A DNA stretch of 50,938 nucleotides from a candidate division WOR-3 bacterium (GCA_965649115.1 CBFGJN010000005.1:1-50938), one strand, 5' to 3'. Shown: positions 8,357 to 38,400, counted from the first letter of the stretch. Notes: generated by a model from the letters alone, not told the origin. Translations and numbers: made by a program.

Positions 8357-8410
8357 GGCTAAGAAACTAGCTAAATTCCAATCACCTTTAAATAATCTGA
8401 AAATAAGACT

Positions 8411-9718: not shown

Positions 9719-9719
9719 A

Positions 9720-10847
9720 TTAAAACCTCCCGTAAATAACCAAGTTTGTTCCTATAAAGTTTTTGTCTCTTTGTAAAAACTCAAACCAAAACGAATTATG
9801 AGAAAAATTACTATCAACTTCCGCATAAACAACACTTCCCGCTTTTAGAGCCTTTTTTACAAATTTATTTAATCCAAGTTGTCTTGAATCTATCGCTAAA
9901 TTTATAAATCCATTTGAAACAAGCGATTTAATTTTTATTCCATTTATTGAAGGTAAAATATCATTTCCTAAATTACTTGAAAATGTAGCAGGTGTTAAGA
10001 AAAGGATTTTTATTATATCTCCTTGATTTACTTTTATTGCCTCTCTAAATAGATTTTTTATGTCAGAATTATTTTCAATCTCATAATAGGCGCTTTTCAT
10101 TTCACCACCAAGTTTTAATGACTTTGGTTCTTTTTTGAAGAAATTGTAAATTTTATTTTCATCAAGATTGGCTTTTTTTAGCTCATTATTATCAAAATCA
10201 AATTCAACCCAAAAGACAAAATACCAATCGTATTCTTTATATCCATTTTCCATCTTATACTTTCCATCTTTCAATCTCAAAAAATCAATTCTATAAAGTC
10301 CATCTTCCTCAACAACAGTATGATAACTCATATCTTGCCTTATTCCAACCCTATTTTCATATTCAAAAATATCTTTAAACTTGATAATTTCATTTTTATC
10401 TGGAATTTGTCCATTTAACCATTTTTTAAGACCATCTTGACTTATAAATCCATCAAAGTCTTCAACCTCTTCCTCTCCAAAATAAATAGCAAATTTTTCA
10501 ATTGGATTTGGTTTGTTTGTATTATTTGGATTAAAAAGCTTATAATTTTCATTTGGAAATTTCAGAAGATAAATTTTATCATCTTTTCCTTTTCTTCCTG
10601 TGTAAATATCAGCAGGTTTAGGAAAATAGATTTTTCCATCTTTTTCATTATAAAGAAATGGACCATAAACAGCTTTTAGAATTTTTGTAATATCTATTTT
10701 ATATTCCCAATAAATTTTAGAGCATATAGCACTTGCAAAAGTATGAGGAAAAGGAGGAAAAATTGAACTTGCAATATCTCCAAGATTAAAAGGCTTTCCA
10801 CTTCCAAAAAATAAAACATCATAAGGTTTTATTTTGAATTTAAGCAT
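9720..10847 (-). CDS. cmr3: Type III-B CRISPR RAMP Cmr3 (Cas5 family)
   Basis: IKPYDVLFFGSGKPF, FPPFPHT, ENRVGI, LKLGGE, LTPA, AGSVVY. Confidence 0.92.
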   Translation of the reverse strand: MLKFKIKPYDVLFFGSGKPFNLGDIASSIFPPFPHTFASAICSKIYWEYKIDITKILKAVYGPFLYNEKDGKIYFPKPADIYTGRKGKDDKIYLLKFPNENYKLFNPNNTNKPNPIEKFAIYFGEEEVEDFDGFISQDGLKKWLNGQIPDKNEIIKFKDIFEYENRVGIRQDMSYHTVVEEDGLYRIDFLRLKDGKYKMENGYKEYDWYFVFWVEFDFDNNELKKANLDENKIYNFFKKEPKSLKLGGEMKSAYYEIENNSDIKNLFREAIKVNQGDIIKILFLTPATFSSNLGNDILPSINGIKIKSLVSNGFINLAIDSRQLGLNKFVKKALKAGSVVYAEVDSNFSHNSFWFEFLQRDKNFIGTNLVIYGRF

Positions 10848-10850
10848 GTT

Positions 10851-12074
10851 TTAAACCTCCCTTGGGTAAATTTTTTGTTTATTTCTAACAAAAATAGATA
10901 TCAAATCCCAATTGACACGCTCATTTATTTCACGATCAGGATAAAATATCAAATCTTTTTTTGGTTTTGGTTTATATATTATAAAAAGCAAAACATAATT
11001 ACTCTGTGAAATCTCAATAATTTTAAACATCAATGGGGAAGCCTTTCTTAAATTTCTGTATCTTCCTACACTAACTATTGGAAGCCCAAAAACTATCCTT
11101 TGATTTATATTTTTTGATTGTCTAAATTTTTTGTATTCAGAACCAGCTTGATCCATAAGGTTTTTCCAATCATTTTTCTCCTCGTATTTATAAACTTCAA
11201 AGTGTTCAAAAAGGTAAGGTATGCCATTTCTTGGTTTAGGATTTAAAATATTTTTTATCTTTTCAAGATTATCTTTTATCCAATTTTCTATTTGAGGTGT
11301 CGGTAAGAAACTCAAATCAAAACAATTTGATATTAAATCTTTATTATTTTCTTCAATTTTCTCTACTTTTATTGACCCGAAACCTCTTCTGCTTCTACTT
11401 CCAAAATTTCCAAGATTAAATGCAAGCCATAAAGCACAGAAAAATTTTTTAATATCATCATCAGTTGATTTGGGATGAAAACGAATGGTTAAGGTAAAAG
11501 TCGTATCTTCTGGAATTAGTTCTCTCTTATTTGCCTTTAATGAAAATCCTAAATAGGAGTATCCTTCTAATTGAAGGTATAAAGGATAATAAATGAACGG
11601 ACTATACTTTGTTATATCCTTAATCTCAGGTTTAGATAAAAACTCCTCAATTTGTTTTTTTATATAAGTAAGCTCGCGTAAATTTTTCTTTAAACTATCT
11701 AAATTTCTTTGTAGTTTTTGTTTTTCCTCGTGATTCTTTTCTTTTTTAAGTTTTTCTTCTATTTTATTTATTTCTTCTCGTGTTTCCTTTATTCCTTTTT
11801 CCAATACTTTTGTTTTATTATCTTGTGCAAAACTTTTAATTCTATCTAAGTTAAATTCCTCTTTACTTAGACTTATTCTCACCAATCCCTGATTTGCTTT
11901 ATCTCCACCCCATCCAAAAATTCTTCTTTCATCTTCAATAGAACCACCTGCAATTCTAAACCACCATCTCAAAATCCCATTTATGCTTTGAGTTCTCAAT
12001 TCTGCCTGCTGATTTGCTCCACCAAGAAAAAGAGGCGTTATGATTTTACACTTTAAATTAAAAGTTCTCATCAT
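10851..12074 (-). CDS. cmr1: Type III-B CRISPR RAMP Cmr1 (copy b, with coiled-coil insertion)
   Basis: ITPLFLGGA, ELRTQSINGILRWWFR, FGSRSRRGFG, FGLP, RKASPL. Confidence 0.92.
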   Translation of the reverse strand: MMRTFNLKCKIITPLFLGGANQQAELRTQSINGILRWWFRIAGGSIEDERRIFGWGGDKANQGLVRISLSKEEFNLDRIKSFAQDNKTKVLEKGIKETREEINKIEEKLKKEKNHEEKQKLQRNLDSLKKNLRELTYIKKQIEEFLSKPEIKDITKYSPFIYYPLYLQLEGYSYLGFSLKANKRELIPEDTTFTLTIRFHPKSTDDDIKKFFCALWLAFNLGNFGSRSRRGFGSIKVEKIEENNKDLISNCFDLSFLPTPQIENWIKDNLEKIKNILNPKPRNGIPYLFEHFEVYKYEEKNDWKNLMDQAGSEYKKFRQSKNINQRIVFGLPIVSVGRYRNLRKASPLMFKIIEISQSNYVLLFIIYKPKPKKDLIFYPDREINERVNWDLISIFVRNKQKIYPREV

Positions 12075-12127
12075 AACTTAACCTCCTATGTAATTTTTAA
12101 GAGTTTCTATTTGATAAATAAACCTTT

Positions 12128-14734
12128 TCATACTCTAACCTCCCTTGATAAAAATCTTGAAATTAAAAAGAGATTGACAAAATACTTCACCTCAAAGTTG
12201 TAGTTTTCAAATTGTTTTATGATTTCTTCAATATATTTTTTATTTTCAACCTTCTTTCTAAAATAAATTCGTTTTAGTTCAACTTTTAAAAGTTCTTTAT
12301 TTTCAATCATTTCATTTTCATAAATTTCTGAAAATTCCTTTGCGAAACCTGATGGAATTTGCTCATTTTTGAACTTACAAATTAAGTCATTTATAAAATT
12401 AATTAAATCCCATTTCCCACCTGTATCTCTAATTTCACCTGAATGAGAAATAACTCTTATACAAAAGGCATCTTTTTTAAATGTCTCTTTTGCCATTTTT
12501 TCAGCATTTCTTACTTCCTTCAAGGCAAGATATAATGGATATTTATGATGAACTATAACAATTCCAGCACTCATACTTGCCTTTGGACTTAACACTTCTT
12601 TAAAAGTTTTTTGTAAATTAAAAGCACAACTTAAAACTTCTTCAATTGGCAAGAATGCTAAAAGATCATCACCACCTGCATAAATGAGCTTTCCATAATG
12701 ATAATCTTCAACGATTTTTCTAACTTCTTCAAGTGCAAATTTTGAAAGTCTTCTTGAAAATGCTTGGTGAATTGATGGAGAAACAGGATGTTCAGAACAG
12801 AGAAGCTTTTTAAGTTCATCTATATCTTTTCCTTCACTATATGAAATTAAAGTATCAATAACTTTTGAGTGAATTGTATCTTTTATTTTTGGATTAAATT
12901 CACCTTTTAACCACTTGCCCATATTATCTCCATCCATTTGTAAAATAGCATAGTATTTTGAAGGGGAGATTTTGTTATTTTCTATGAATTTAAGAATATC
13001 TTCATAATCTCCTTCACTCACATCTAAACCATATTCCTTTTTAAAATAATCCTTTCTGTAAGTTTCTTTCATTAGGAATTGTCCGTCTATTTGATAAAGT
13101 AGATCATTTTTTAATTTTGGAACGGAGATCGTTTCGGGAAGTTTTTGTGTGAATAACCTCGGTTTTTTAATTAAATTACCTTGGTTATCTTCTTCGTATT
13201 TAAAATTAAAAATATTAACAAATTTTTTCTTCACCTGTTCATCCAACCTTCTCTTTTCTCCAATACTTGCCATTTCGGAAGTTGAAGGGAATTTAATTTC
13301 AGTTTGTAATTTAAGTTTTTCCTTTATTATTTCAGGAAATAATCTTTTTGTTATACAAACACCGCAGAGTTTCTCGCCTTTCTTCAATAATCCTGGTTTC
13401 TTATTCCTTAAACTATTCCAATCTATATCCAAAACCTCAAACTCACCACATAAATGACATTTTTCTCCTCTACTTTCATAATAATTTTCTTCTAAAACAT
13501 TTCTAATTGATTTTCTTGCTCCAAGAAGTTTTTCAGTAAGTTCTAATAATAATGAATAGGCAGAACCAACATTAGCAGGTTTATAATAAGGATGTTCTAC
13601 AATTGTTTTTATTGTCTGATAAAGATTATTGTTGTTTGAAATCAATTTTCCATAATCTTCAAGAGCTTCATTTGGACTATAATTTTGAGTATCATTTGTC
13701 CAAGGCAAAACTACCCAATATGCTTGGAAGTAGTTTAAAAGATGAGTTTTGATTTGGTATTTAAGATTTTGATTTGAAGAACAATTTGAGAGTTTATCGG
13801 AAACTTTTTTAGAAATTTCTTCTAATTCATCTCTAAAAGTTTTTTCAACTTCTTTTGCCAAATTATTTCCATTTTCATAAGGAATAATTGCTAAAAATCT
13901 ATTTGGAAAGTTTGCAATTGTAAGAGTTTCATCAGAAAAAGCATTATCTATGAATTTTTTGAAATAGTGTTCATTAGAAAAATTTTGGATTATAGGGGAA
14001 TTCTTAAACTTCTCATAAAGCCATCTATCAACTAATGGTTGTCCTAAAAGATTTGGGAATATAACATTATCAGGTCCAAGTTTTTCCATCACTACTTCAA
14101 TACATTTATATATGAAATACGAAAGCATATAACTACCTGCCCATAAATCAGATGTTTTCCTTGCTTTTGAGATAAATTCTTGAACAGGTGATATTGTAAA
14201 TAGTAAGAATGCTGGTTTTGGTAAAGCAGAAACAATAGCAGAAGTTTGGACTAAATGGTCGTAAATTGAATGGTTTGGAGCTCTTGTATCAGCAGGATGT
14301 TTTTCAATTTCAGGGAAAATTTCGGGATAAAAACGCCAAAGGAAGAGAAAGATAAATTTTGCTCTTTCACCTTGATTTTGAAAAGTTAAATTTCCAAGTT
14401 TTTCAAATAATTTTTTAACTTTTTCTTCGTCGGGTGATTGAATTGGTTCTTTTCTTTTGGAGAAAATATCTATGAATTGACATTCATGATAATCAACTTG
14501 GGAAGATTTTTCAAATTGATCTTTTTTATTCTGCTCATTGAAATTTGGCTCGATAATGACTCTACTTTGAGCGAAAGAAAGTTTGTCTGAAATACTTACA
14601 ATATCTTCTTTAAGACTTTCATTTGGAAATATCTTTTGAAAAAGTTTTTCAGCCTCATCATAATGGGTTTTTATAAACTTTGCCTTATATGGTGGGTCGT
14701 GAAGCAAAGCTTTTAATTTAAGCTTCCAGTCCAT
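12128..14734 (-). CDS. cas10: Type III-B Cas10/Cmr2 cyclic oligoadenylate synthase subunit
   Basis: LLHDP, PADTR, KTSDLWAGSY, CxxC..CxxC zinc finger, MDGDNMG, YAGGDD palm motif. Confidence 0.97.
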   Translation of the reverse strand: MDWKLKLKALLHDPPYKAKFIKTHYDEAEKLFQKIFPNESLKEDIVSISDKLSFAQSRVIIEPNFNEQNKKDQFEKSSQVDYHECQFIDIFSKRKEPIQSPDEEKVKKLFEKLGNLTFQNQGERAKFIFLFLWRFYPEIFPEIEKHPADTRAPNHSIYDHLVQTSAIVSALPKPAFLLFTISPVQEFISKARKTSDLWAGSYMLSYFIYKCIEVVMEKLGPDNVIFPNLLGQPLVDRWLYEKFKNSPIIQNFSNEHYFKKFIDNAFSDETLTIANFPNRFLAIIPYENGNNLAKEVEKTFRDELEEISKKVSDKLSNCSSNQNLKYQIKTHLLNYFQAYWVVLPWTNDTQNYSPNEALEDYGKLISNNNNLYQTIKTIVEHPYYKPANVGSAYSLLLELTEKLLGARKSIRNVLEENYYESRGEKCHLCGEFEVLDIDWNSLRNKKPGLLKKGEKLCGVCITKRLFPEIIKEKLKLQTEIKFPSTSEMASIGEKRRLDEQVKKKFVNIFNFKYEEDNQGNLIKKPRLFTQKLPETISVPKLKNDLLYQIDGQFLMKETYRKDYFKKEYGLDVSEGDYEDILKFIENNKISPSKYYAILQMDGDNMGKWLKGEFNPKIKDTIHSKVIDTLISYSEGKDIDELKKLLCSEHPVSPSIHQAFSRRLSKFALEEVRKIVEDYHYGKLIYAGGDDLLAFLPIEEVLSCAFNLQKTFKEVLSPKASMSAGIVIVHHKYPLYLALKEVRNAEKMAKETFKKDAFCIRVISHSGEIRDTGGKWDLINFINDLICKFKNEQIPSGFAKEFSEIYENEMIENKELLKVELKRIYFRKKVENKKYIEEIIKQFENYNFEVKYFVNLFLISRFLSREVRV

Positions 14735-14738
14735 AGTT

Positions 14739-16013
14739 TTACCTCCTTGGTATTTCCTCTATTAAAAATTCTTGAATTATATTTTCGCATGAACGATTAA
14801 AGTTTTGAACTATATTTGAACCATTAAAAATTATTGTGTTTTTACTTATCGTAAATAAGTTTTGATTTAAAATTCTCAATAAGCCTCTATGAGCAAAGAA
14901 ATTTCTTTTTAATTTTTTGAGATCATTTGGAAGAAGAAAACTTTTCTTAGATTTGAAAAACCTATTTATTTCTAAAATTATCTCATTTCTTAAAGTAGCA
15001 ATTCGTCTATATAACTTTCTTGTTAATTCTACAATTTTAATCTGACTTACTTGACTTTGATTTTTGAATCCAATTTTATTTAAAATAAATGAAATTAAGT
15101 AAATTTTTACTAAATCTGAAGTTTTTTCAGAAATTTGAATTTGCCTTTTAACAACATTTCCATTAACCAAAATGTTTGAATAAAAATTATTTAATTCAGC
15201 TCCAATATCATTTTTTAAATTGTTCAAATCGGGCATATAGTAATAAATGAAGTAAGGAAGACCATGAATAATTGAAGAACCAAAACAATAATATCTTAAT
15301 TCATTATTTTGTTGATTTTTCTTAATCATTTGCTTAAATTGATTTAGCAAGTTATGGTCTATTGAAATTGGAAAGTTTGGGAAAACTTGAAAATTAACTA
15401 TTTTATTTATTCTGTATTTGCTTTTTGTAGAAACGGGAGCGACAGGTTCAGAATAAAGAACTTTTAAATTTACCATAAAGAAATAAGATAAAATTTGAGC
15501 CATCTCATAAATGGCATCATAAATTGAAACAATATGATAATTTTGCCCATGCGTAATATCAAAAACTATTTCTATATTTTTGTCATTTGAATTAAGAACA
15601 TTTTGAATAATATAATCAGTAAGTTCGTATAAAGTAATATGATAAAAATCTCTTGGATTACCTTCATAAGATGAATTAGAATAATTGCCAACCCCTGGTG
15701 AAACTATTATCTTATTTACTTTAATTTGATGTTGATTAATAATGCTTTGGGCACAATTTATTGCTCTTTGCTTTACATCATTATAATCAGAAAATGGATT
15801 TGGATCATAACAATCACAATTATTCTTATTACTTTTTGGTAAAAAACTTGAATTAGCAAGTGTATCTGAAATTACAATAATTGCATAATTTGGATTTTCA
15901 ACTTTATGAATCACTTCCAAACTTGTTGAAGCAATAGTAGTCTGACCTTCATATTCATATTCTACAATTTCCCAACTACATGGATTTCCCCACGTTGCTA
16001 TAAGCACTTTCAT
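14739..16013 (-). CDS. csx1: Csx1 CARF-HEPN ribonuclease
   Basis: MKVLIATWGNP..W..Y start, DITHGQN CARF motif, RNFFAH HEPN motif. Confidence 0.88.
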   Translation of the reverse strand: MKVLIATWGNPCSWEIVEYEYEGQTTIASTSLEVIHKVENPNYAIIVISDTLANSSFLPKSNKNNCDCYDPNPFSDYNDVKQRAINCAQSIINQHQIKVNKIIVSPGVGNYSNSSYEGNPRDFYHITLYELTDYIIQNVLNSNDKNIEIVFDITHGQNYHIVSIYDAIYEMAQILSYFFMVNLKVLYSEPVAPVSTKSKYRINKIVNFQVFPNFPISIDHNLLNQFKQMIKKNQQNNELRYYCFGSSIIHGLPYFIYYYMPDLNNLKNDIGAELNNFYSNILVNGNVVKRQIQISEKTSDLVKIYLISFILNKIGFKNQSQVSQIKIVELTRKLYRRIATLRNEIILEINRFFKSKKSFLLPNDLKKLKRNFFAHRGLLRILNQNLFTISKNTIIFNGSNIVQNFNRSCENIIQEFLIEEIPRR

Positions 16014-16016
16014 TTT

Positions 16017-16937
16017 TTAGCCTCCTTCTGCCATTATGACATCAAAAACTTTAACTTCCTTACTATTCGTTGAAACATAAACAAAATATCTATCATAACT
16101 TAAAGAATAAAAAGCACCTGCAATACTTTGAACCTTTTGACCTCCTGTTGTATCAATTAAAATTTCATTATCTTTCAGACTTTTTTCCTTTAATTCTCTA
16201 AATGCCTCTTCCAAGGCTAATATATTTTTTTCAAGATTTTCAAAATCTATACCTTGATTGTGTCCTATAATTTGAACATTTGGAAAGAATTTTTTTACAA
16301 GCTCTTCAAAATGTTTGATTTGATTATAAGAGCCATTTTCACTTCCAATAACATAAAGGTATTCAATTTGATTATATTTTTCTAAAATTCTCAATTGCAT
16401 TTCCCAAGAACATCTTGGATATGATAAGTAAAAACTTTCAAGGTTTTCAAAATCGCAAGGATTAAAACTTTGTGGCATATTATTCCAATAACTCAAAAAC
16501 ATAACTAAACCCTTAATTTTTTTTGGTGAAACTTCTTTAACTGAAAATCTTAAACCTTCCGAACTTCTTATATATAACCAAATTACTAAAAAAGCACTTG
16601 AAGATAATGAAAATTGGATAAAAACTAATAAATTTTCTTTTAAAAATTCCCTTAAAGCGAAAGCAAAAAGAAGAACAACAAAAGCAGAAAGGACAATAGC
16701 AAAAAATAAATGATTTTCTTTTATTTTGCTCAATTTTCCAATAAGCCAATAAAAAGATAAATTTAAAATAATAATACCTCCTGAAATTCCTACAAAACAT
16801 AAATTGCCTTCATATAATAATTTTAAAAATTCAGCAAATCCATCAGCAAACCAAGAAACTGAAAGAATAAAAATTAATGCAATTATAAAAGTTTGAGGTT
16901 TTCTAATTCTACCTAATTGTCTAATTAAGAATTCCAT
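16017..16937 (-). CDS. Membrane-anchored CARF effector (Cam1-like), about 4 TM helices plus C-terminal CARF
   Basis: Four hydrophobic segments in the first ~125 aa; GLVMFLS and IDTTGGQK CARF motifs. Confidence 0.78.
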   Translation of the reverse strand: MEFLIRQLGRIRKPQTFIIALIFILSVSWFADGFAEFLKLLYEGNLCFVGISGGIIILNLSFYWLIGKLSKIKENHLFFAIVLSAFVVLLFAFALREFLKENLLVFIQFSLSSSAFLVIWLYIRSSEGLRFSVKEVSPKKIKGLVMFLSYWNNMPQSFNPCDFENLESFYLSYPRCSWEMQLRILEKYNQIEYLYVIGSENGSYNQIKHFEELVKKFFPNVQIIGHNQGIDFENLEKNILALEEAFRELKEKSLKDNEILIDTTGGQKVQSIAGAFYSLSYDRYFVYVSTNSKEVKVFDVIMAEGG

Positions 16938-16943
16938 TTACTT

Positions 16944-17813
16944 TCAATCATTTCCTAATATCTCCATCGCCAAAAGTTTCAAAAGTGGTCTTTGATCTTT
17001 CGTTTTATAGTAGTATTCTACCAGTGCTCTTGCTAATCTATATGGAATTTCAAAAGATAAGACAAAAAACGAAAACCAATAAAATGGATAAAATGGATAA
17101 TAACGCCTTAAAATGTAAATTATTTCATCAATATCATATGGATAAAACCACCAATGTATCCTATTAAACTTTCTATCTTTCCAATCTTCAAGAACAAATG
17201 GAAGAAAGTCTTTGTTATATTTTAACCAATAATAGCAACCTTGATATTCAAGTGGTTGATTTTTTATAAATTCAGAAACAATAGCTTTTTCCTTATCAAA
17301 ATGAATAAATGCAATAGCATTAGCAAGACTTTCTTCTATAATCCTCTCGTGTTCATTTAATTTATCTGTTTTTAAGTAAGCATGGACAAGCTCGTGAATA
17401 AGGACTTTTTGAAATATAATTTGAGGTTCTTTATGCTTATAAATCCTTTCAGGACAAATATAAATTTTATTTTCATTCTTAGAATAGCAAGCAAGAGCAG
17501 GAAAAGTCCATTTATTACATTCAGAAACCTCACCCCATAAAGAATTTACAATACTTACACTTTCTTCATAATTTCCAATATTTTCATTGAAATTTACTAT
17601 TCTCTCTCTAACCTTCCTAATAGCGGAACGGGCACATTCAGGGTCATATCCTTTTTGAGGAGGACAAATGTTGTCCATCGTTTTTTCATTTACAAGCTCA
17701 ATTTGAGAAATTTCAGCATATGCTTTTGCTAGAAAAGTTAGCCTACTTACAGCAGATCTTACAAGACCAAAGCTTATTTGTATTGAACTATCTCTATTTT
17801 TAACCTTTTCCAT
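16944..17813 (-). CDS. Putative zinc metalloprotease (HExxH..E) in the cmr operon
   Basis: VLIHELVHAY followed by IIEESLANA; aromatic-rich C-terminus; SD AGGAGG. Confidence 0.65.
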   Translation of the reverse strand: MEKVKNRDSSIQISFGLVRSAVSRLTFLAKAYAEISQIELVNEKTMDNICPPQKGYDPECARSAIRKVRERIVNFNENIGNYEESVSIVNSLWGEVSECNKWTFPALACYSKNENKIYICPERIYKHKEPQIIFQKVLIHELVHAYLKTDKLNEHERIIEESLANAIAFIHFDKEKAIVSEFIKNQPLEYQGCYYWLKYNKDFLPFVLEDWKDRKFNRIHWWFYPYDIDEIIYILRRYYPFYPFYWFSFFVLSFEIPYRLARALVEYYYKTKDQRPLLKLLAMEILGND

Positions 17814-17827
17814 ATCTTAACCTCCTT

Positions 17828-18643
17828 TTAAAAAACTAAATTTCTTAAAATAAAACTTCCTTTACTTGTTATTTTCAATCTATAAACTTCTGTATCCCTT
17901 TCAATATCAACAAGACCATAAATTTCAAGCCTTGTTAATTCATCGTTATATTTATCAAAAAGAATTTTAGCATGTTCTCCACTTATAATAGTTTCCTTTG
18001 ACAACTCTTTTAAAACTTCTAATTCCCTTCCCTTTGGCAAATAAAATAATTTTGGAAGAAATACAACTTCATTAAATTCCTCATTCATATAATAAATATC
18101 GCAGTTAAGTAAAAATCCCGCTAATGCACAAGTTATAACATGAGCTTTAAGTCCTCCCGTCGGATTAAAATAAACATTATATCCTTCATTCATCTTCTTA
18201 CTTGCAATTGAAATAAGTCTATCAAGAAGTTCAACAATACCTTTTTTAAATTCATCTCTTGCATATTTTTCATCAAATTGTGCCTCAAAGAAATATCCTG
18301 AAACTTCATAAGGATTATAAAGTTTAACACCTATTTCTTTTAAATAACTTTCTATTGCTCTTCTTGAAAGTTCGTTTGAATTTGTACTCGTTCCAAAAAG
18401 ATAAACTTCAATATCATTATAGTTTTTATTTTCAATAACCCTTAAAAATGTATTTAGTTCAGCACAGCTCAACTTAGGATTTTCTTTTATGAATCCTTTA
18501 AGCTTTTCAATCGTTTGAGGATTTTCCAAAAGTTCTTTCCACTTATTTTCATCAGCAATTCTTATATCACTTGGAATTATGTTTTTCCTTTGAGCATTCG
18601 TTATAAGAGAAACACCTGTGCTTATTATATGAAATTCTTTCAT
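17828..18643 (-). CDS. crn1: APE2256/Crn1-family CARF protein (probable ring nuclease) with C-terminal wHTH
   Basis: IISTGVSLITN, SCAELN, NPTGGLK, YYMNE. Confidence 0.78.
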   Translation of the reverse strand: MKEFHIISTGVSLITNAQRKNIIPSDIRIADENKWKELLENPQTIEKLKGFIKENPKLSCAELNTFLRVIENKNYNDIEVYLFGTSTNSNELSRRAIESYLKEIGVKLYNPYEVSGYFFEAQFDEKYARDEFKKGIVELLDRLISIASKKMNEGYNVYFNPTGGLKAHVITCALAGFLLNCDIYYMNEEFNEVVFLPKLFYLPKGRELEVLKELSKETIISGEHAKILFDKYNDELTRLEIYGLVDIERDTEVYRLKITSKGSFILRNLVF

Positions 18644-19542
18644 TTTTTAACCTCCTCTTTAAAAAGTCCATATCCAAGCCTTGTTTTTGAACCAACACCA
18701 AACTCACAAAGAGCCTCTTTTAAAATCTCACCAAAAAATTTCTGATTTCTTATTAAATCCTCAACACAATTTTTAACCTTTTCCGAAAAATTATCTTTTA
18801 TCTTTTCCCATCTAAAATCATCAAACAAAACATTAAATTGAAATTCAACTCCTTCCTTTACTACTAAAAAGAAAATAGGTCTTGGATTTTCCCAATCACC
18901 AGGAGCACTTTTTCCTTCATAATAACTTGGATAATGAACATTCATTATGTCAAGGTCAAAAATTTGAGAATTATTTTCTGTTGGATAGGCATCAAGGAAT
19001 AAAAGTAGTCCTTTGAAATTTTGAGCTCCAAAAAGAAGTTGGTATTTTAGAATTTCTTCATCATCTTTGACAAGTTCTTTATAGAATTCTTCTTGAATTT
19101 GAATTCCTTTGCTTTCTGCCAATTTCCAAAACGCAACTGCTCTACAAACGCCTTTTAAAGCACTTCCTGGAATATAAGGCACACCAAGAATATGATGTAA
19201 TGTTATTGAAGTTTCAAGAACATGTTGTGAGCCAAGACCAATAATTAAACGAGATTGGGTTGAAATTCTATTACTATATACTAATTCATATTTTTGATTT
19301 TTTACAAGAAAACTAACTTGTTCCTCAATTCTCTTTAATGAGATTCTGTATGGATAATACACTTTACTATTTGAAAAATTAACATTAGAAAAACTTTGAA
19401 GGAAATTCCTCTTTAACTTTGTGTTCTCAATTATTTCTTTTTTGATAAGTTTTGTTAAGGCGAGAGAGGCATTTTCGCAATTTTGGAAATTTATAGAAAC
19501 ACCATTATAGATTTTATTTATAAGGTCATTATAACCTTTCAT
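18640..19542 (-). CDS. cmr6: Type III-B CRISPR RAMP Cmr6
   Basis: RLIIGLG..LETSITLHHILGVPYIPGSALKG, DIMNVHY, GVGSKTRLGYG. Confidence 0.96.
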   Translation of the reverse strand: MKGYNDLINKIYNGVSINFQNCENASLALTKLIKKEIIENTKLKRNFLQSFSNVNFSNSKVYYPYRISLKRIEEQVSFLVKNQKYELVYSNRISTQSRLIIGLGSQHVLETSITLHHILGVPYIPGSALKGVCRAVAFWKLAESKGIQIQEEFYKELVKDDEEILKYQLLFGAQNFKGLLLFLDAYPTENNSQIFDLDIMNVHYPSYYEGKSAPGDWENPRPIFFLVVKEGVEFQFNVLFDDFRWEKIKDNFSEKVKNCVEDLIRNQKFFGEILKEALCEFGVGSKTRLGYGLFKEEVKK

Positions 19543-19666
19543 CCTCCAACCTCCTCTTTAACTTTTTTAAACCTTTCTATAAGGTTTTCTTGCAGCAATT
19601 TTTCAAACCCCAATTTTTTAATAATCCCTTTTTCAAACTCTTGAAAGGTTTTTTGTTTTTAACCAT
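19539..19666 (-). pseudogene. Probable ~42-aa mini-ORF with a 1-nt frameshift in an A-run
   Basis: ATG 1 nt after the cmr5 stop and TGA overlapping the cmr6 ATG; 128 nt long; the -1 frame reads QKTFQEFEKGIIKKLGFEKLLQENLIERFKKVKEEVGG. Confidence 0.4.
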
Positions 19667-19667
19667 T

Positions 19668-20069
19668 TTACTCCTCTTTTAACTCTACTTCCGCCATCCT
19701 TTTAAGCCATGTTGCTATGTTTAAAACTTCACTTGTAGTAAGTCTTAATGTTTGAGGATCAGTTTCAAGCAAAAAATCAAGCAGGTCTTTGTTTGGGTTA
19801 TTATTTTTCCAATCTAAATATGGTTTAAAGTTTAACTTTCCTAAAATTTCAGAAATATCTTGAAAAATTTGCCCTCTGTCTTTTCCTTTTGATTTATAGA
19901 ATGCTAATGCCGGAATTAGGCCGTTATTAACAATTGTAGAGGGCAGTCGCTTGATATAAGAAGAATAATCTTTTATATAATCCTTGTTATTAGTTTTTTT
20001 TATCCTCCTTACACACTCCAAAGAAAGTTCCGCTATCTGTTGATGTTTTGTTTTTATAACACTACTCAT
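19668..20069 (-). CDS. cmr5: Type III-B small subunit Cmr5 (copy b)
   Basis: YSSYIKRLPSTIVNNGLIPALAF..WLKRMAE. Confidence 0.93.
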   Translation of the reverse strand: MSSVIKTKHQQIAELSLECVRRIKKTNNKDYIKDYSSYIKRLPSTIVNNGLIPALAFYKSKGKDRGQIFQDISEILGKLNFKPYLDWKNNNPNKDLLDFLLETDPQTLRLTTSEVLNIATWLKRMAEVELKEE

Positions 20070-20072
20070 AGT

Positions 20073-20951
20073 TTAACCTCCTTCTGTCTTATGAATTTCT
20101 ATTAGGTTAAATTTTCCTTCTATAAGCTCGTTTATTCTTTTGTTTATTTCCTCGGTTAGCCATCTATTCCAAAGCAAAACGACCCCATAATAACCTTCTT
20201 TTGCTTTCTTTATTTGAATTATTAAAGGTGAAGCTCGCCCAAGTATTATTTTATCAACATTCAATTTATTTTTTAATGCTCTATAAAAATTATCTCTTAA
20301 ATCATTCATACAATCTTGCCACGAATTCCATAAATTTCCATCTTTCTTGGTTATTAAGTAAATGGAAGTGTTTGAAATATTCATAAAATCATTATTATTT
20401 GAATTTTTTGGAAAGCTTGCCAACTTTTGTTTTATTTCTTTTTTAATTTTTTCAAAATCTTCATTCTCATTATCCAATTGAATACTTCCAAATCCTCTCC
20501 TCCATCTTGCTCCAATTCCACCAAAATTTGTCATAAAGAAAATAGTTTCAATCAATTCATTTTCAATTTTAACCTCATCGCAAGGTTTTAGAAATCTAAA
20601 TTCTATTTGAAAATCTTTATTCTCAGAAAGCGATTTTCTTCTTATTGCTATATAGTTCCTCTTAGCTCCATTTTCACCATTTTTTCTTCTATCATTCATA
20701 CATAAATAAGCATCAATTATTTTAGAAGGTTTATTCTTAATTCTTAACTTTACCCTTGAAGCAAGTTCTTGTGAGCCAAAAATTTCACTTTCATTTTTTC
20801 TTAAATCATTTAAATTCAAGCTTCCACCTTTATAAAATCTAAACCACCATCTTAAAATACCTTTTATAGATTGCTCTCTTAATTCTACTTTATCCTTATC
20901 AGCACCTGCCATAATTATTGGTGTTGTGATGTTAAATTTCAAACTTTTCAT
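20073..20951 (-). CDS. cmr1: Type III-B CRISPR RAMP Cmr1 (copy a)
   Basis: TTPIIMAGA, ELREQSIKGILRWWFR, GGIGARWRRGFG, RASPL. Confidence 0.9.
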   Translation of the reverse strand: MKSLKFNITTPIIMAGADKDKVELREQSIKGILRWWFRFYKGGSLNLNDLRKNESEIFGSQELASRVKLRIKNKPSKIIDAYLCMNDRRKNGENGAKRNYIAIRRKSLSENKDFQIEFRFLKPCDEVKIENELIETIFFMTNFGGIGARWRRGFGSIQLDNENEDFEKIKKEIKQKLASFPKNSNNNDFMNISNTSIYLITKKDGNLWNSWQDCMNDLRDNFYRALKNKLNVDKIILGRASPLIIQIKKAKEGYYGVVLLWNRWLTEEINKRINELIEGKFNLIEIHKTEGG

Positions 20952-21349
20952 GATTTTTCCTCCTTAACCATCGTTTTAACTTTATTTACGAAATTTCTCA
21001 TCTTATCCAAAAAATCAACCATATTTTTTAAGTCTTTTTCTTTTATACTACAATATTCGTAGGCTATTAAATTTCGTAAAAATACAACACTCTTTGCCTC
21101 TCTTAAATCCTCTTTGTTGATAATTCTATTTTTGCTAAGAATTTCAAAAACTTCCGAATATGTAGAAGGAAAACCTAACCTCTTTTTCATCACAACCGCT
21201 TCGGCAATATCTATTAAAGCATTAGCTGATTGAAAACATTCCATAGCCAAAGTGTTATAAATAAGATAATCTGATAAATTTTTATTTTTCAAACTTTTTG
21301 CTCCATTTAAATGTTTTTCAAACCTTAATATATTTTCTTCAATCCTCAT
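20948..21349 (-). CDS. hepT: HEPN/DUF86 (HepT-like) toxin with catalytic His replaced
   Basis: LGFPSTYSEVFEIL..FLRNLIAYEY (canonical RNxxxHxY). Confidence 0.8.
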   Translation of the reverse strand: MRIEENILRFEKHLNGAKSLKNKNLSDYLIYNTLAMECFQSANALIDIAEAVVMKKRLGFPSTYSEVFEILSKNRIINKEDLREAKSVVFLRNLIAYEYCSIKEKDLKNMVDFLDKMRNFVNKVKTMVKEEKS

Positions 21350-21707
21350 TTAAAATACTCTCCCTTATCATCTTAAAACTTCTTACCCTTTCATGAAAAT
21401 CCCTTAAAACCTTAAACTTTATTTCCGATAAAATTTCTTCATCTTTTACATATAGTTCCTTTCCAAATTTAAAAACTTCAAATTGGATATGTAAAGGCAA
21501 TCTATGAAAAAGAACCAAGTCAAGTTTTTGGGAGTACATACTTCCAATTTCGTATTCATCTTTTTCATTAGGATTTTTTAAAATTACGCATATATCAATA
21601 TCGGAAAGGGGATTACTTTCTTTCTTAGCGTAAGAACCAAAAAGATAAATTGCCACAACATTTTTATTCTTTTTGATTTTTCTTAAAATTTTATCCAATC
21701 CTTCCAT
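21339..21707 (-). CDS. mntA: Minimal nucleotidyltransferase (MntA-like antitoxin)
   Basis: YLFGSYA..SDIDI (GS-x10-DxD), LDLV. Confidence 0.9.
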   Translation of the reverse strand: MEGLDKILRKIKKNKNVVAIYLFGSYAKKESNPLSDIDICVILKNPNEKDEYEIGSMYSQKLDLVLFHRLPLHIQFEVFKFGKELYVKDEEILSEIKFKVLRDFHERVRSFKMIRESILNED

Positions 21708-21714
21708 TTTAGTT

Positions 21715-22035
21715 TCAACTTTCCATTTCAGAAAATCTTTTCAAATAATTTGAAAGTTTTAGTGCTTCAAGCGTTGCTTTTCTTAAAGTTTGCAAATCAG
21801 CATTTAAAAGTTCATTTAAAGCATCATTCTGAATTAAACCTTTCTTTTTCAGCCAATTTGAAATAGTGTTATAAACATTTTTTTCTTCTTTATAATAAGC
21901 AAGTGTCGGAATAAGTCCATTTGTCATTATAAGATTTGGAAGTTTTTTAAATTCTCTTTTTTCACTTTCACCTGAATTTTTTACTTCATCATTAGCAAAT
22001 TTTGCTATTTCTTGTTCAAGGGTTTTGGCCGCCAT
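21715..22035 (-). CDS. cmr5: Type III-B small subunit Cmr5 (copy a)
   Basis: KTLEQ..KKLPNLIMTNGLIPTLAY..EAL..YLKRF. Confidence 0.92.
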   Translation of the reverse strand: MAAKTLEQEIAKFANDEVKNSGESEKREFKKLPNLIMTNGLIPTLAYYKEEKNVYNTISNWLKKKGLIQNDALNELLNADLQTLRKATLEALKLSNYLKRFSEMES

Positions 22036-22969
22036 GGGTTTGACTTTTTTGATTAGTGTTTATTTTTTCAAACTTTACTTTTACAAATCCTTTTCCAAGT
22101 GTCTCATCAGCGCCAAGTTGAAGGATTTGATGACCATTCGGAAATAAAGTAGATAATTCTCTTAAAACATCATCAGCACTATTTAAATTTGAAGACTTAT
22201 TATACGGCTCACTTATGAAAACCAAGCTATAAAAAACACTTTCAGAAGGAATTAATTCTTCACTAAATAAAGCACCTTCCTTAACAGTTCCTGTTGTTTG
22301 GTCAATTCTAATTCTTGTCCTGATTTCAACAGCATAATTTACAAAATCCTTAAAAACATCATCTGAAACAATTGCAAAATGATTTTTGAAGAAGTCTTCA
22401 TTAAATTCAGTTTGTGGAAGTAGTTTAAAAACTTCCTCTGCTATGTTATCAGAATTTTGATTATTTTCTATATCAAAAACGAATTCTTCAAAAGCAACTT
22501 GATTATTATCTATTTTTAAATCACTTGAAGAACATAAAATAACTTTTTCATTCTGTATATTATCTGGAATTTGTATATCATTCCCTTGATTATCTTTGAA
22601 CTCTTTTCCTATACTCTTTAAATCCTCTTTTAACCTTTTCAAGACAAATGGACAAGTAATCCAAGCAAATGTTCCTTTTACAGAACGAACAGGAAATAGA
22701 AGAATTTTAGCATCAGTTATACTTATACAGCTTGCATATTGATCTGAGCCTTCTTCTGGACCAAAAATGACATTCACTTTATCTTTATCATTCCACTTTC
22801 TATAAGCAAGTTCTCTTACAACACCCTTTATACCACTTGACCATAGCGTAGGATAAGATGTATGTCTTTCTCTTTGAACAACATTATCAACAAATGATAC
22901 ACTTTGACCTGAACCCATATGTATTGGTGTTAGTGCATAGAATGTAAGATATCCTTTTTGCTTGTACAT
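22016..22969 (-). CDS. cmr4: Type III-B CRISPR RAMP Cmr4 (Cas7, RNA-cleaving subunit)
   Basis: TPIHMGSGQ..VDNVVQRE, DAKILLFPVRS, GALFSEE, QLGADETLGKG; start placed at ATG 22969 after SD AGGAGG. Confidence 0.97.
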   Translation of the reverse strand: MYKQKGYLTFYALTPIHMGSGQSVSFVDNVVQRERHTSYPTLWSSGIKGVVRELAYRKWNDKDKVNVIFGPEEGSDQYASCISITDAKILLFPVRSVKGTFAWITCPFVLKRLKEDLKSIGKEFKDNQGNDIQIPDNIQNEKVILCSSSDLKIDNNQVAFEEFVFDIENNQNSDNIAEEVFKLLPQTEFNEDFFKNHFAIVSDDVFKDFVNYAVEIRTRIRIDQTTGTVKEGALFSEELIPSESVFYSLVFISEPYNKSSNLNSADDVLRELSTLFPNGHQILQLGADETLGKGFVKVKFEKINTNQKSQTHGGQNP

Positions 22970-23002
22970 AAATTTACCTCCTAATTTTAAAGTGAAAGTC
23001 AA

Positions 23003-25544: not shown

Positions 25545-26095
25545 AAACCTTTTTTTGGAATTTTTGGACACAGCATCAATATGGGCATTTTAAAGACGCA
25601 GCCTTTATTTTAGAGTGGGCGGGCAAAATATAGTAAAATAAATAATTTCAGAATTTTTAGACACAGCAAATTTAATCTGCTTTGTCCAGTAAATAATGTT
25701 AAGTGCTTGATAGTCAATAACTTATTAAAAATTCATTAAAATTCTTGAAATAATGGGGGGAATTTAAGGGGGGCGAAGCCCCCCAAAGCATAAGAATGGG
25801 CATTTTAAAGCCGAAGGCTTATATTCAGGGTGGGTGGGCAAAATAAGAAATAATCTATATTTCCGAATTACTAGACAAAACATCAGAATTTTGCTTTGTC
25901 CAATAAATAATGTTAAGTGATTGATAGTCAATAACTTATAAAATTTTTAAAGAAATTATTGATTTTATGGGGGATTATAGGGGGGGCTTTGCCCCCCATA
26001 ACCGAAAAATGGGTATTTTTAAGCCGAAGGCTTAATATCAGGGTGGGTGGGAAAAATATAGAAAAATAAATAATTTCAGAATTATTAGACACAGC
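25545..26095. mobile_element. Tandem MITE-like cluster: decayed copy plus two 203-bp copies (25679-25881, 25893-26095)
   Basis: Junction AAATTTAATCT (25668-25678); ATCAGAATTTT on both sides of the last copy (25882-25892, 26096-26106). Confidence 0.88.
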
Positions 26096-26130
26096 ATCAG
26101 AATTTTTACTTTATGCTTTAAACTTTCCTT

Positions 26131-27375: not shown

Positions 27376-27892
27376 GTTTAAATTCCACGTTGTTTAAATT
27401 CCACTATGTTCAGATGAAACAAAGAAGTTCTTACAATAGAAATGAATATCATCAATATGTTTAAATTCCACTATGTTCAGATAAAACTCGCAAATCACGG
27501 AACCAAAAGGGTCAACATAGAAATCAAAATCTGTTTAAATTCCACTATGTTCAGATAAAACACATAGTGGAATGAGAATAAAAAGGGGGTGGAAAATAGT
27601 TTAAATTCCACTATGTTCAGATAAAACCAAAGAAGAAAAAAGCTCAGATATAAGCACTGAAATAATGTTTAAATTCCACTATGTTCAGATAAAACTCATC
27701 ACGAACGGATTAACCCCCGGTATGTTTATACCGTTTAAATTCCACTATGTTCAGATAAAACGCTTTATTATTTGTCACGAGTTAGCACACTATTACCGTT
27801 TAAATTCCACTATGTTCAGATAAAACGTGGTAAAAATTCTCCTCGATACAATTGATGACACAAGTTTAAATTCCACTATGTTCAGATAAAAC
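27376..27892 (-). CRISPR. CRISPR array: 8 repeats of 29 bp and 7 spacers (36-45 nt)
   Basis: Plus-strand repeat GTTTAAATTCCACTATGTTCAGATAAAAC at 27392, 27459, 27533, 27599, 27667, 27733, 27798 and 27864; variant repeat and partial copy at the left (trailer) end; minus-strand repeat ends in ATTTAAAC, a typical 8-nt handle. Confidence 0.97.
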
Positions 27893-28400
27893 CCCCCCTT
27901 TTAAGCCCCTAAACCTATTTCAACAAGGCATTATGCCTTGTAAAGAAAGATATAAATCAAACCAAGTCCATACCTAACTAAATTTAAATTTTCCCTAACG
28001 AAAATGTATATAACAAAATGCTGTCCTAAAATTTTAAAGCATACCTCAAACAAATGTCAATTGCCGCAAACCTCCACCTTGTTATTAGTCAAATTAAAAT
28101 GATAAATTATTAAGTAATTGATAATCAATAATTTAAATAAATTAACTAATTTTAATTTGTCAAATAAAATTCTTCAAAATTTTAAGTTTGTGACTCTCCC
28201 TTCTGATAAGCTTTTGAAATAAAAAATTTTATAAATTGCTGAAAATCAATAACTTAAAATATATTTGAAATCCTCATAAATTCTAAATTTTAATTTGTCT
28301 GATTAAAATTCAAGTTTCCAAAAGTGAAAAGTTTTAAAAAAGAGGGGGGTTTGTGACAAGGTTTAAATTATTGATTATCAATAAGTTATTTAATTTATGC
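27893..28400 (-). promoter_or_regulatory. CRISPR leader with -10 box at 28031-28036, inverted repeat and IHF-like sites
   Basis: Minus-strand TATGCTTTAAAAT points into the array; TTGCCGCAAACCTCC (28061-28075) and GGGGGGTTTGTGACAA (28344-28359) form an imperfect IR; WATCAANNNNTTR matches between them. Confidence 0.65.
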
Positions 28401-30079: not shown

Positions 30080-30116
30080 TTTCTTTTGCCTATTGGGAGC
30101 GAAGTATTTTAAAGCT

Positions 30117-30191
30117 GCTTTGTCCAGTAAATAATGTTAAGTAAAAAGCCCCCCATAGCCAAAATATGGGTATTTATAAGCCGAAGGCTTA
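30117..30191. repeat. Partial MITE-like copy between convergent genes
   Basis: GCTTTGTCCAGTAAATAATGTTAAGTAAAAAGCCCCCC.., same deletion variant as the 23321 copy. Confidence 0.7.
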
Positions 30192-30204
30192 ATTAGCCGA
30201 AAGC

Positions 30205-35038: not shown

Positions 35039-35479
35039 ATGCTTAAAATTCCCGAACATGGATATTGCTTTGTATGTGGAAATTCAAGCAAAAGAGGGCT
35101 AAATGCAACATTGTTTTTAATGGATGATAAAAGTGTTTGTTGTGAGTATGAATTTGATATAAACTTTCAAGGACCTCCTGGTTTTGTTCATGGGGCAGCA
35201 AGTTTTAGTTTGCTTGATGAGGTTATGGGAATATGTGCGTGGGCAAATGGTTATAATGTTTTGTTAAGACATATGGATATTGAGTATTTTAAAATGGTTC
35301 CTTTATATAAAAGAATTAAAGCAGTTGGTAGAATTGAAAAAGTTGAAGAAAACAAAAAAATTTTTGTAATAGGTGAAATAATTTATGAGAATGAAGTTTA
35401 TATTAGAGCAAGGGGACTTTATATTTTAGTTGAAAACGAACTACTTGGGAATGTTAAAAAGGTTTTCATAGATACGTAA
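35039..35479 (+). CDS. PaaI-family hotdog thioesterase
   Basis: CFVCG, FQGPPGFVHG..LLDEVMG; start moved to the ATG after TAAAAT. Confidence 0.88.
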   Translation: MLKIPEHGYCFVCGNSSKRGLNATLFLMDDKSVCCEYEFDINFQGPPGFVHGAASFSLLDEVMGICAWANGYNVLLRHMDIEYFKMVPLYKRIKAVGRIEKVEENKKIFVIGEIIYENEVYIRARGLYILVENELLGNVKKVFIDT

Positions 35480-38400
35480 AAGAACATTTTGGTAATTTTC
35501 AGTTCCTTCTTCAACATTATCCATAATTTTTTCAAGTTCTCTTGTAAATTCTTCTTTTATAAAAAATTCCTTTTCTTCAAGCGAATTTAAGAAATTATAA
35601 ACTAAAATGCCAAGTTTCGTTGGAATTAAAAATCCATTTTTCTCATAAACATAGTTTCTTTCAAGAAGTTTCTCAATGATTGTTGAATAAGTTGACGGCC
35701 TACCAATACCTCTTTCTTTCATCATAGCCACGATAGTTGAGTAAGTATGAGGATATTTTGATGGAATAAGTTTAAAAACTTTTTGATTTTCACTAATTTC
35801 ATATATTCCATCAGGTAAATGATAAGTTTTTATTGGAATTATTAGATTAAAACCATTTTCAATAATTTCACTATTTAACTCTAATTCCTTCTCATAACCT
35901 ATTGCTTTAATTCTATACTTAGTGATTTTAACTTTTACACTTTTCATTTGACTTGCTATAAATCTCTTGAAAATTAAATCATATAATTTAACATGTTCAA
36001 AGCTTAAATTTGTAATCTCACCTATGGATATTAGTGATTTTAAATCATCTACACTTAAATTTCTTGTAGGTCTTATACATTCATGAGCACCACCCTCTCC
36101 CCATACTCTTGCTGAAAATAAATTTTGGTCTTTATAGTTTTCAATTATGAATTCTTTTGCTAAATTTATTCCTACATCTGAAACCCTTATTGAATCAGTT
36201 CTATGATAGGTTATTAAACCAAATTCAAATAAATCTTGTGCTAATGACATTGTTTTTTGAGGTGAAAATTTAAATTTTTCTCCCGCTTCTTTTAATAAAG
36301 TATCTGTTCTAAAAGGTGGTAAAGGATTTATTTCTTTTATTTCTTCACTAATTTTTTCAATTTTAACATTTTCTAATAGTTTAAAAAATTCTTCTGCTAA
36401 TTTTTTGCTTTCAAATTCAAAGTCAATTTTTAAATTGTTTAAATAAATACTAACAATTGGAATTTTCTTTTTGCTCTCATTAAATCTTTCAATAATCCAA
36501 CCTAAAACAGGTGTTTGAACTCTACCCGCAGATAATTTATTATTTTTAAATTTCTTTTGGACTAATTGTGAAAGTTCAAATCCTACCCATCTATCTGCAA
36601 TCCTACGAACAATTTGTGCTTTTGTTAAGTTCTCATTTATACCTCTTGGTTCATTTAATGCTTTCATAATTGCTCTTTTTGTAATTTCATGAAATTCCAT
36701 TCTATTTATATTTTTATTTGAAAAATTAAGCAAATTATATAAATCCCAAGCAATTTTTTCACCTTCCGTGTCAGGGTCAGTAGCTATAAAGATATTATCA
36801 TATTCTAAGCTTACAAGTCTTAAGCTTTTTATTAAATTTTCTTTCCCCTCAATAGGTTCATATATTGGAATAAATTGAGAATTTTTAATAACACCATGAA
36901 TTCCTTCATCCTTTACTAAATCCAAAATATGACCAAAGCTTGCTGTAATTGAAATATAATATTCACCAATTGGAATTTCATAAATTTCACAATTTAAAAC
37001 TTTTCTTCTAACTGGCTTTCCAAAAAAGTTTGCAATCGTTCTTGCCTTATTAGGACTTTCAACAATTATAAAAATTGGTTTTAAAACATCTTTAATCTCA
37101 CCAAATCCCTTCTTCTCAATAATATCTTTAATAATTTTTCTATCCTTGTCAATTTCCTCAAAAACTTTATTATAATCTACTTCTTCCTCATTTAAGAAAT
37201 TAATATCATTAACGAACCATCTTGCCTTTCTAAAAAGATTATTTAATGCTTTTTGGTCATCTACTAAAATTAATGATAAACCTTTACTTATTCCACCTGC
37301 ATATAATCTTGAAGTTCTTCCACTTGCTTGTAAATATCCAACAATATCAGCAACAATAAGATTATTTCCATCAAATGAAATTTCATCACTTTCTTTTATA
37401 ATTCTTTGAACTTCTTCACTTAATAAGAATTCAAGTATTTCCTTTTTTAAGTTTTCATCTTCATTTTTCGTTTTCTTCAATTTTTTAAGCCATTTATCAA
37501 TTCTTTTATCTTCAACTTTGGTTCTAATGCTTGCTAATGCCCAAATTAAATGATTTTGATTTTCTGTTATATCAAGTTTAACAATAATTTTAGGAACTCC
37601 ATAAAATATCGCATATCTTATAGCAGATGGAATATCTATTCCTCTTGCAAGTGGATTTCTATATGAACTAATTCCAACGAGAACTTCAATTTTTCCATTT
37701 TCAAATTGTTTTAATAATTTTTCATCTAAGTTTTCATAGCTTTCCGCTTTAATCCCATTTCTTTTTAAAAGTTCAACAATTCTATTAACCTCCTCTTTAC
37801 CTTTATCAGAACTTACAAAAATTAATCCACCTTTTTTAAATGTTTTTACATAATTAATTAGTTCATTATCTGAATGTTTATTTGTCCATACATCTACAAC
37901 ATTTCTTAAATAAAATGTAGGTTTTCCAATTTCAAAATCTAATAATTCTCTAAATAATTTAACTCTTTGACTTTTTGGACTTGCTGTTGCTGATGAAACA
38001 ACGAGAACACTATCTATTGATTTTTTCTTATCTTGAATTAATTGATTTATCTCTTCAATTTTCTTAAAATCTTCATCAGTTTTATTTTTCTTTGATTTTA
38101 ATTTAATAAGTTCAAATGTTTTATTTATTGTTTCTTCATCAAAGCCCATCAAGTAAAGAATTTTATCTATATTTTTGGCAGTTTTTAAAAATGCATCAAC
38201 ATCATCTACAAAGAAGAATTTTATATCTTTTGGAATGATATTAAAATTTTTATATAAAAACATAGAAGTTGTGATAAGGATTTTGAAATTACCATTTTTT
38301 ATTTTTTCTTTAATTTCTTCATCACTTTCAATTACTGCTAAGGTTTCTTTTTTATAGCCCCAATTTTTAATTTTTTGTGATACTTGTCTTACAAGTAATT

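Follow-up and report, generated by a model that had tools for sequence, protein, structure and literature searches.

Can a spacer that is complementary to the repeat beside it be an ordinary spacer, or does it betray a copying error, an assembly fault or a foreign element that resembles the repeat? The question is raised by a CRISPR array of a candidate division WOR-3 bacterium, in which 12 nt at one end of a spacer are the exact reverse complement of part of the adjoining repeat. The answer depends on whether the sequence is real, on what its transcript would do, on how often such a match arises by chance and on what can be found of the spacer's source. We consider these points in turn.

The window (here the whole stretch of DNA analysed, 50,938 nt) corresponds to contig C5 in a 1.85-Mb assembly of metagenome type, which is fragmented into 99 contigs and 94.5% complete. 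It has a GC content of about 27%, and since its sequence is present in hot-spring metagenome runs we take the host to be a thermophile; a reverse gyrase-type protein with helicase and topoisomerase domains is encoded at 35441-38653. The Pfam matches in the type III-B effector locus of the window (Table 1) comprise Cmr1-like, Cmr2/Cas10, Cmr3, Cmr5 (two genes), RAMPs, Csx1_CARF and Cas_APE2256, and this locus is likely one user of the crRNAs of the array. Adaptation genes are found on contig C26 (Cas3-Cas4-Cas1-Cas2) and on C25 (a second Cas1-Cas2), the latter also carrying Cas5 and Cas7, and there are two Cas6 genes, one each on C11 and C66.

Several further features of these loci were observed. 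A HepT-like/nucleotidyltransferase pair (20948-21707) interrupts the Cmr operon (window 8411-23002, minus strand), the two Cmr5-like genes lie at 19668-20069 and 21715-22035, and two ORFs at 16017-17813 are unassigned. After the operon, at 8411-9718, follows the gene of an AAA ATPase-domain protein, in which an EVE domain is also matched weakly, slightly under the Pfam cut-off. On C66 (L056:5971-8165) the gene of an RtcB RNA ligase extends into the start of cas6, which in turn runs directly into a 17-repeat array (8160-9249). RtcB ligates RNA ends of the type made by Cas6, and the pairing may be functional. Three tandem units of about 214 bp, 61-85% alike, occupy 25557-26107 between McrBC-like and D-Tyr-tRNA deacylase genes, and a further partial copy of the unit (30109-30193) lies about 4.2 kb off on the opposite side of the array.

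Table 1. Positions in the window of the array, the stem arms and the associated features
Feature	Position	Strand	Remarks
Type III-B (Cmr) effector locus	9720..23002	-	With Csx1 and other CARF genes; Pfam matches
CRISPR array	27392..27892	-	8 repeats of 29 nt and 7 spacers
Leader	27893..28060	-	Promoter-like site inside; sets minus-strand transcription
Spacer	27562..27598	-	37 nt, fifth of seven from the leader; crRNA = UAUUUUCCACCCCCUUUUUAUUCUCAUUCCACUAUGU
Anti-repeat arm	27562..27573	.	ACATAGTGGAAT, 12 nt, exact reverse complement of 27539-27550
Repeat arm of the stem	27539..27550	.	ATTCCACTATGT; repeat positions 12-23, crRNA sense
Repeat downstream of the spacer in the transcript	27533..27561	-	Processing predicted to be hindered
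GGGGGTG	27585..27591	+ (target sense)	Shine-Dalgarno-like motif or 5' arm of a terminator stem

Seven of the repeats in the array are exact copies and one has a single mismatch; in the sense of the crRNA the repeat reads GTTTTATCTGAACATAGTGGAATTTAAAC, or GUUUUAUCUGAACAUAGUGGAAUUUAAAC when written as RNA. The array is transcribed from the minus strand, because the leader is common to four other arrays (the stretch from 27893 to about 28040 is conserved upstream of those on C1, C32, C35 and C66) and because it contains a promoter-like site (TTGACA, 18 nt, TAAAAT; 28060-28031, minus strand) that matches at 11 of 12 positions. The initial annotation was therefore right to let the true repeat end in ACAUAGUGGAAU-UUAAAC and to read the implied target RNA in that sense. 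Genome-wide the repeat family comprises four more arrays and one solitary copy, with 119 repeats and 113 spacers in all.

Other members of the family show some variation. In the core of the repeat, CCACTATGTTCAG is found here against CCACATAGTTCAG in the arrays of the sister species G002 (L058-L061) and in a Bacillus plasmid array (L085:340-500); this change, which amounts to an inversion of CATAG at 27539-27550, is fixed in all repeats. Partial or degenerate copies of the repeat occur at trailers (27378-27391 and the trailer on C1). The first of these, GTTTAAATTCCACGTT, adjoins the oldest repeat at the trailer end and resembles a partial copy that a different species in the genus has at the syntenic locus (G003:C77, L062:478-493), a recurrence from which it follows that the array site is old. 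The solitary copy (G000:C33:6308-6336; L057:3309-3337) has two mismatches, has its sense on the plus strand and has no second repeat nearby. It is immediately preceded by a csx3-like gene (L057:2097-2762) and by an ORF of 186 aa that belongs to no known family and has its stop codon within the repeat; the copy could be an array relic or a regulatory repeat-like RNA. Among the 113 spacers, six are 59-79% GC as against about 27% for the genome, and thus derive from very different DNA (C1:76208-76243 and 76931-76969; C32:612-648; C35:1327-1363, 1796-1833 and 1863-1898); one of the six gave no match in the viral contigs.

The plus strand of the spacer under study reads ACATAGTGGAATGAGAATAAAAAGGGGGTGGAAAATA. 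Its anti-repeat arm forms the leader-distal end, which is the 3' end in the crRNA. That this arm is a 12-nt reverse complement of the adjacent repeat and gives a 12-bp stem had been claimed in the initial annotation, and we confirm both the claim and its coordinates: the arms stand 11 nt apart and match at 12 of 12 positions, with mismatches immediately beyond both borders. Allowing one mismatch, the 12-mer has nine matches (0.24 expected), of which eight lie on the plus strand in the repeats and one on the minus strand at 27562-27573.

In the target sense the spacer is ACATAGTGGAAT-GAGAAT-AAAAAGGGGGTGGAAAATA, in which GAGAATAAAAAGG adjoins the arm and GAGAATAAAAAGGGGGTGGAAAATA is the stretch that the arm precedes. 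The likeness to the repeat covers exactly 12 nt. The six bases that follow match the TTAAAC of the repeat at only two positions, and identity over the visible repeat positions 12-29 is 14/18 (78%). The remainder of the repeat upstream of the 12-mer (GTTTTATCTGA, positions 1-11) falls outside the spacer. A second GTGGAA hexamer within the spacer was considered as another piece of the repeat and dropped, 6-nt matches to the repeat being common among spacers.

Otherwise the spacer has the look of a bona fide one: it lies between intact repeats, in an array with a leader, and the genome has cas genes. Its 37 nt are the modal length (38 of the 113 spacers; range 35-45), and its GC content of 35% can be called typical (spacer median 29%). 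With at most three mismatches allowed, the 37-mer finds only itself in its own genome, where it is present in a single copy.

An inverted 12-mer next to its donor might also be made during assembly or sequencing, as a fold-back chimera, and the initial annotation had named such an artefact as grounds for abandoning its reading. Arrays are difficult to assemble and the assembly, in 99 contigs, is of the metagenome type. Against this, independently built Logan contigs from X1 (168 nt, depth 9.7) and from X2/X4 (168 nt, depth 2.4) carry 27460-27627 with no difference and no gap, a stretch that spans a repeat, spacer 6, the next repeat, the spacer under study and one more repeat. Their depths resemble those of neighbouring pieces of the array, and the spacer has a normal length and perfect repeats on both sides. 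X2 and X4 have identical sizes and appear to be a single data set deposited twice, and X1 may be the source sample, so that at least one and probably two independent data sets hold the spacer. Because these contigs are unchanged over the whole stretch, we reject the artefact as very unlikely. Run X5 contains a related strain, in which the spacers differ.

In the pre-crRNA the 3' end of the spacer, AUUCCACUAUGU, would pair with positions 12-23 of the next repeat. When the minus-strand RNA is folded in a context of 237 nt, a 12-bp stem with an 11-nt loop is predicted in both the MFE and the centroid structure. The predicted energy is -15.2 kcal/mol at 37 C (mean stem-pair probability 0.96), -5.9 kcal/mol at 70 C (0.82) and -3.3 kcal/mol at 80 C (0.74), which suggests a hairpin that persists to about 80 C. 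The remaining six spacer units are practically unstructured (MFE of 0 to -1.4 at 70 C), and repeat nt 19-21 are predicted to be paired at 70 C with a probability of 0.92-0.99, against 0.10-0.67 in these six units. Pairing of the crRNA with its own pre-crRNA, as proposed in the initial annotation, is thus strongly predicted in the form of a cis hairpin with the adjacent repeat. We also considered the hairpin as an intrinsic terminator and rejected it: no U-run follows the stem and no terminator is called there.

The Cas6 cleavage site probably lies 8 nt from the 3' end of the repeat, in which case the handle would be AUUUAAAC; an 8-nt 5' handle is usual for Cas6 systems (PMC5741207). If so, the scissile bond falls within the stem. 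Burial of the site would lower cleavage at the repeat 27533-27561, and the loss would be felt on both sides: fewer correctly ended crRNAs from the spacer itself, and from the next, older spacer (27488-27532) fewer crRNAs with a correct 5' tag, or else a two-spacer intermediate. Based on the predicted fold, processing by Cas6 at this repeat should be reduced. The Cas6 of this repeat class may, however, bind the 5' part of the repeat and melt local structure, which would counter such a block.

Under the seed and PAM rules of type I systems and the requirements of type III systems, self-targeting of the 119 repeats of the genome by this crRNA is unlikely, as only 12 nt would pair, at its 3', PAM-distal end.

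How often would such a match arise by chance? Only one of the 113 spacers of the genome has a match to the repeat of more than 9 nt in either orientation, and the next-best inverted match is 8 nt, seen in seven spacers. Using genome k-mer frequencies, the 18 inverted 12-mers of the repeat occur at 22 of 3,677,176 positions, or 5.98e-6 per spacer edge, and the probability of at least one inverted 12-mer at any of the 226 edges of the 113 spacers is 1.35e-3. When a 12-mer is accepted anywhere in a spacer and in either orientation, the same frequencies give 3.5e-2 per genome; in shuffled spacers, 134 of 3000 reach at least 12 nt anywhere (8 repeat variants, both orientations counted).

At 1.2e-5 per spacer, one case at an edge is expected for every ~84,000 spacers inspected. 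The match is unusual for a single genome, yet within the yield of a very large scan, and the survey behind the find plausibly reaches ~84,000 spacers. In G002, which has a closely related repeat, the longest inverted match to the repeat among 45 spacers is 7 nt. As neither these nor the 112 other spacers of the genome show anything similar, a recurrent mechanism is not evident in the lineage.

We then turn to the source of the spacer. Within its own genome, a search with the 25-mer (spacer nt 13-37) at up to six mismatches gave just seven places, all with six mismatches, and blastn-short with the 113 spacers gave no match of more than 25 nt beyond the arrays. Among 19 genomes of the order, the 25-mer (at most three mismatches) was found only in the genome itself (G000). 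In the collection viral_contigs, nt 13-37 were found nowhere; nt 1-18 were found at two places, both apparently coding sequence and unrelated beyond the 18-mer, and nt 19-37 at one place, a terminator-like hairpin with 24/37 identity. Since the hits of these overlapping pieces are unrelated to the spacer, no viral contig in the collection holds a protospacer at 0-1 mismatch.

Similar outcomes were obtained in genome_contigs, with no place for nt 13-37, three places for nt 1-18 (alike in the 18-mer only) and 20 places in 18 loci for nt 19-37, where identity over the left part is at most 10/18. For nt 13-31, metagenome_contigs gave eight places, with the likeness confined to the 19-mer. Cultured phages gave no match and plasmids only weak matches to Bacillus arrays with a related repeat. 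The 18-mer over the junction occurs in no array of genome_contigs or viral_contigs, and the core of the repeat has two matches in viral contigs, which we take for coincidences within genes. With exact 24-29-mers, none of four other spacers of the genome had a match in the viral contigs. A missing protospacer is therefore uninformative, as these four spacers were not matched either, and it follows from the same result that the mobilome of the host is absent from the collections.

Some indication of the source comes from the other half of the spacer, where the initial annotation had seen an SD-like GGGGGUG. This is a credible ribosome-binding site: in the own genome, 13 of 56 occurrences of GGGGGTG lie within 4-10 nt of the start of an ORF of at least 60 codons, as do 38 of 184 for GGAGGTG, against only 2-4% for four control heptamers. 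In unrelated genomes, the 19-mer AAAAAGGGGGTGGAAAATA is at several of its 20 places followed at once by TG, which completes an ATG, and at two loci (L045 and L068) it provides the 5' arm in a terminator hairpin. Sequences with an SD motif plus ATG are also seen in other spacers of the genome. The spacer was probably drawn from a short non-coding gap in a compact mobile genome, immediately before the start of a gene. Acquisition from RNA, for instance from a Cas6-cut crRNA end joined to another RNA, was considered and rejected, because both Cas1 proteins stand alone and the genome, 94.5% complete, yielded no reverse transcriptase.

Taking these results together, our tentative preference, held at somewhat less than even likelihood, is for an ordinary spacer from a mobile element, the leader-distal 12 nt of which happen to be the inverse of the repeat core and keep no record of a mimic. 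The Cas4-Cas1-Cas2 or the Cas1-Cas2 module would have captured it from an unsampled mobile element of the hot-spring community. Unlike the sequence, its reality, the orientation of the transcript and the predicted fold, this origin and the coincidence are what we infer. They are supported by the sharp limit of the likeness at 12 nt, the normal length and composition of the spacer, the lack of a second case and the size of the survey; they are weakened by the edge probability within the genome (P=1.35e-3) and by the match abutting the edge of the spacer, as a longer repeat-like unit beyond the protospacer would also give. Nearly as likely as coincidence, though somewhat unlikely in itself, is a template-switch (quasipalindrome) mutation after normal acquisition. 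Here the polymerase would briefly have copied the nascent or opposite strand in the adjacent repeat, so that an inverted copy of repeat positions 12-23 replaced the first 12 nt of the spacer and a perfect hairpin arose at a single stroke. A related kind of mutation is reported from E. coli as quasipalindrome mutagenesis. The perfect reverse complement, the donor 11 nt away, the sharp borders and the length that is still the modal 37 nt all agree with it, and the donor lies inside the repeat with no regard to its boundaries, which fits a geometric error better than a biological unit. The affected end is moreover the PAM-distal 3' end of the crRNA, where mismatches are best tolerated in type I and type III targeting, so that a mutant could persist. 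The repeat of the sister species differs by three adjacent changes, equal to the CATAG inversion, in the same core, from which it follows that multi-base changes of the inversion type have occurred here before. Template switching is known to build perfect stems in a single event (PMC8794818). On the other hand, it requires microhomology at two switch points, no second case is seen in the 157 other spacers of the family, and neither an ancestral allele nor a protospacer without the tract was found in the 19 genomes of the order or the collections: the unaffected 25-mer gave nothing real in viral contigs, genome contigs and the 19 genomes, nor did the 19-mer in metagenome contigs.

The edge position of the match might also be explained by a protospacer that overlapped a repeat-like unit on a mobile element or in a foreign genome. 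Candidates are solitary repeat units or RNA anti-CRISPRs, viral mini-arrays, degenerate terminal repeats of other arrays and scars of recombination between phage and array; in each case the likeness would continue outside the protospacer, and the crRNA would target the transcript or the DNA of that unit. We regard this as possible but disfavoured, and unlikely overall. In its favour, the crRNA would pair with a repeat-like RNA of the sense strand, a possible target for a type III-B system, and repeat-derived pieces do exist in the form of partial copies at the own trailers and the solitary repeat on C33. Viral solitary repeat units are reported for almost all CRISPR types, mostly of the subtype of the host, and they number 2,103 in 2,332,702 IMG/VR and 437,636 prophage sequences (PMC10651486). 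Given this rarity, a spacer that straddles such a unit is by a rough estimate 3-10 times less likely than the chance match. The SRUfinder criteria require 90% identity or more across 90% or more of the repeat (PMC10651486), against 14/18 (78%) over positions 12-29 here. The mismatches fall in the conserved 3' handle (2/6 matches), a part that a functional Cas6 substrate or a crRNA mimic should have retained. Moreover, the repeat core in viral contigs comes down to two coding-looking places, and the junction 18-mer to two viral and three genomic places that are unrelated; of what a mini-array or foreign trailer would give, the spacer shows no second partial repeat beyond the GTGGAA hexamer, and the junction was seen in no array of genome_contigs or viral_contigs. 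With a mismatched handle and 78% identity, nothing supports the proposal of the initial annotation that a repeat mimic, a mini-array or a 5' UTR with a Cas6 site was the source of the spacer. A more specific version is less probable again, to the point of being quite doubtful: the spacer would record a truncated mimic of the repeat family on a hot-spring virus or plasmid, lying directly upstream of a ribosome-binding site, and the type III-B system of the host would have been turned against its transcript. Equally doubtful is what this mimic would do, namely keep the Cas6-binding 5' part with the 3' handle replaced, and act as a Cas6 decoy or a Cas6-processed 5' UTR in a type I-B/III-B host.

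Comparison with known systems shows how far each element of these readings has a precedent. For repeat R6 of the CRISPR2 array of Synechocystis sp. PCC 6803, helices formed between the repeat and the preceding spacer extend over the cleavage site, and that repeat is left uncut by Cas6 in vitro (PMC5741207). Here, too, the predicted helix joins the repeat to the spacer before it and spans the presumed cleavage site, and in both arrays the effect depends on the adjacent spacer, since all repeats are identical. In Synechocystis the effect was seen in vitro with a hairpin-forming repeat, whereas here it is a prediction for a little-structured repeat in a thermophile, with an unusually long and perfect stem of 12 bp.

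A mimic would share with Racr and solitary repeat units (PMC10651486) the repeat-like sequence, the sense orientation and a place on a mobile element, possibly intergenic. It differs from Racr in that the spacer shows only 12 of the 29 repeat positions, next to a mismatched handle, and because the identity criterion fails on the visible part (78% vs 90%) it is not assignable to the SRU/Racr class. A member of that class would in addition be solitary and intergenic on a virus or plasmid, have a promoter within about 250 bp upstream and be expressed as a small RNA that Cas6 binds and cuts. With the template-switch hairpins of PMC8794818 the locus shares a perfect reverse-complement copy, sharp borders and a size that fits a single event; unlike those cases, which have a before-and-after comparison, it is known from the present allele. 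Among literature titles and abstract openings, we found no description of spacers complementary to their own repeat.

If the hairpin does block Cas6, the locus would be a natural example of a spacer that degrades its own maturation and that of its older neighbour. Such a cost of spacer content is seldom considered, and in a thermophile only an unusually long stem would survive to impose it. If the template-switch reading is true, local copying errors corrupt arrays, which would matter for pipelines that match spacers to targets; if the repeat mimic is true, RNA anti-CRISPRs would extend to the little-structured Cas6 repeat class of thermophiles. Most likely, this is an ordinary spacer, and it then carries a caution: short repeat-like pieces in spacers are to be expected by chance in very large scans.
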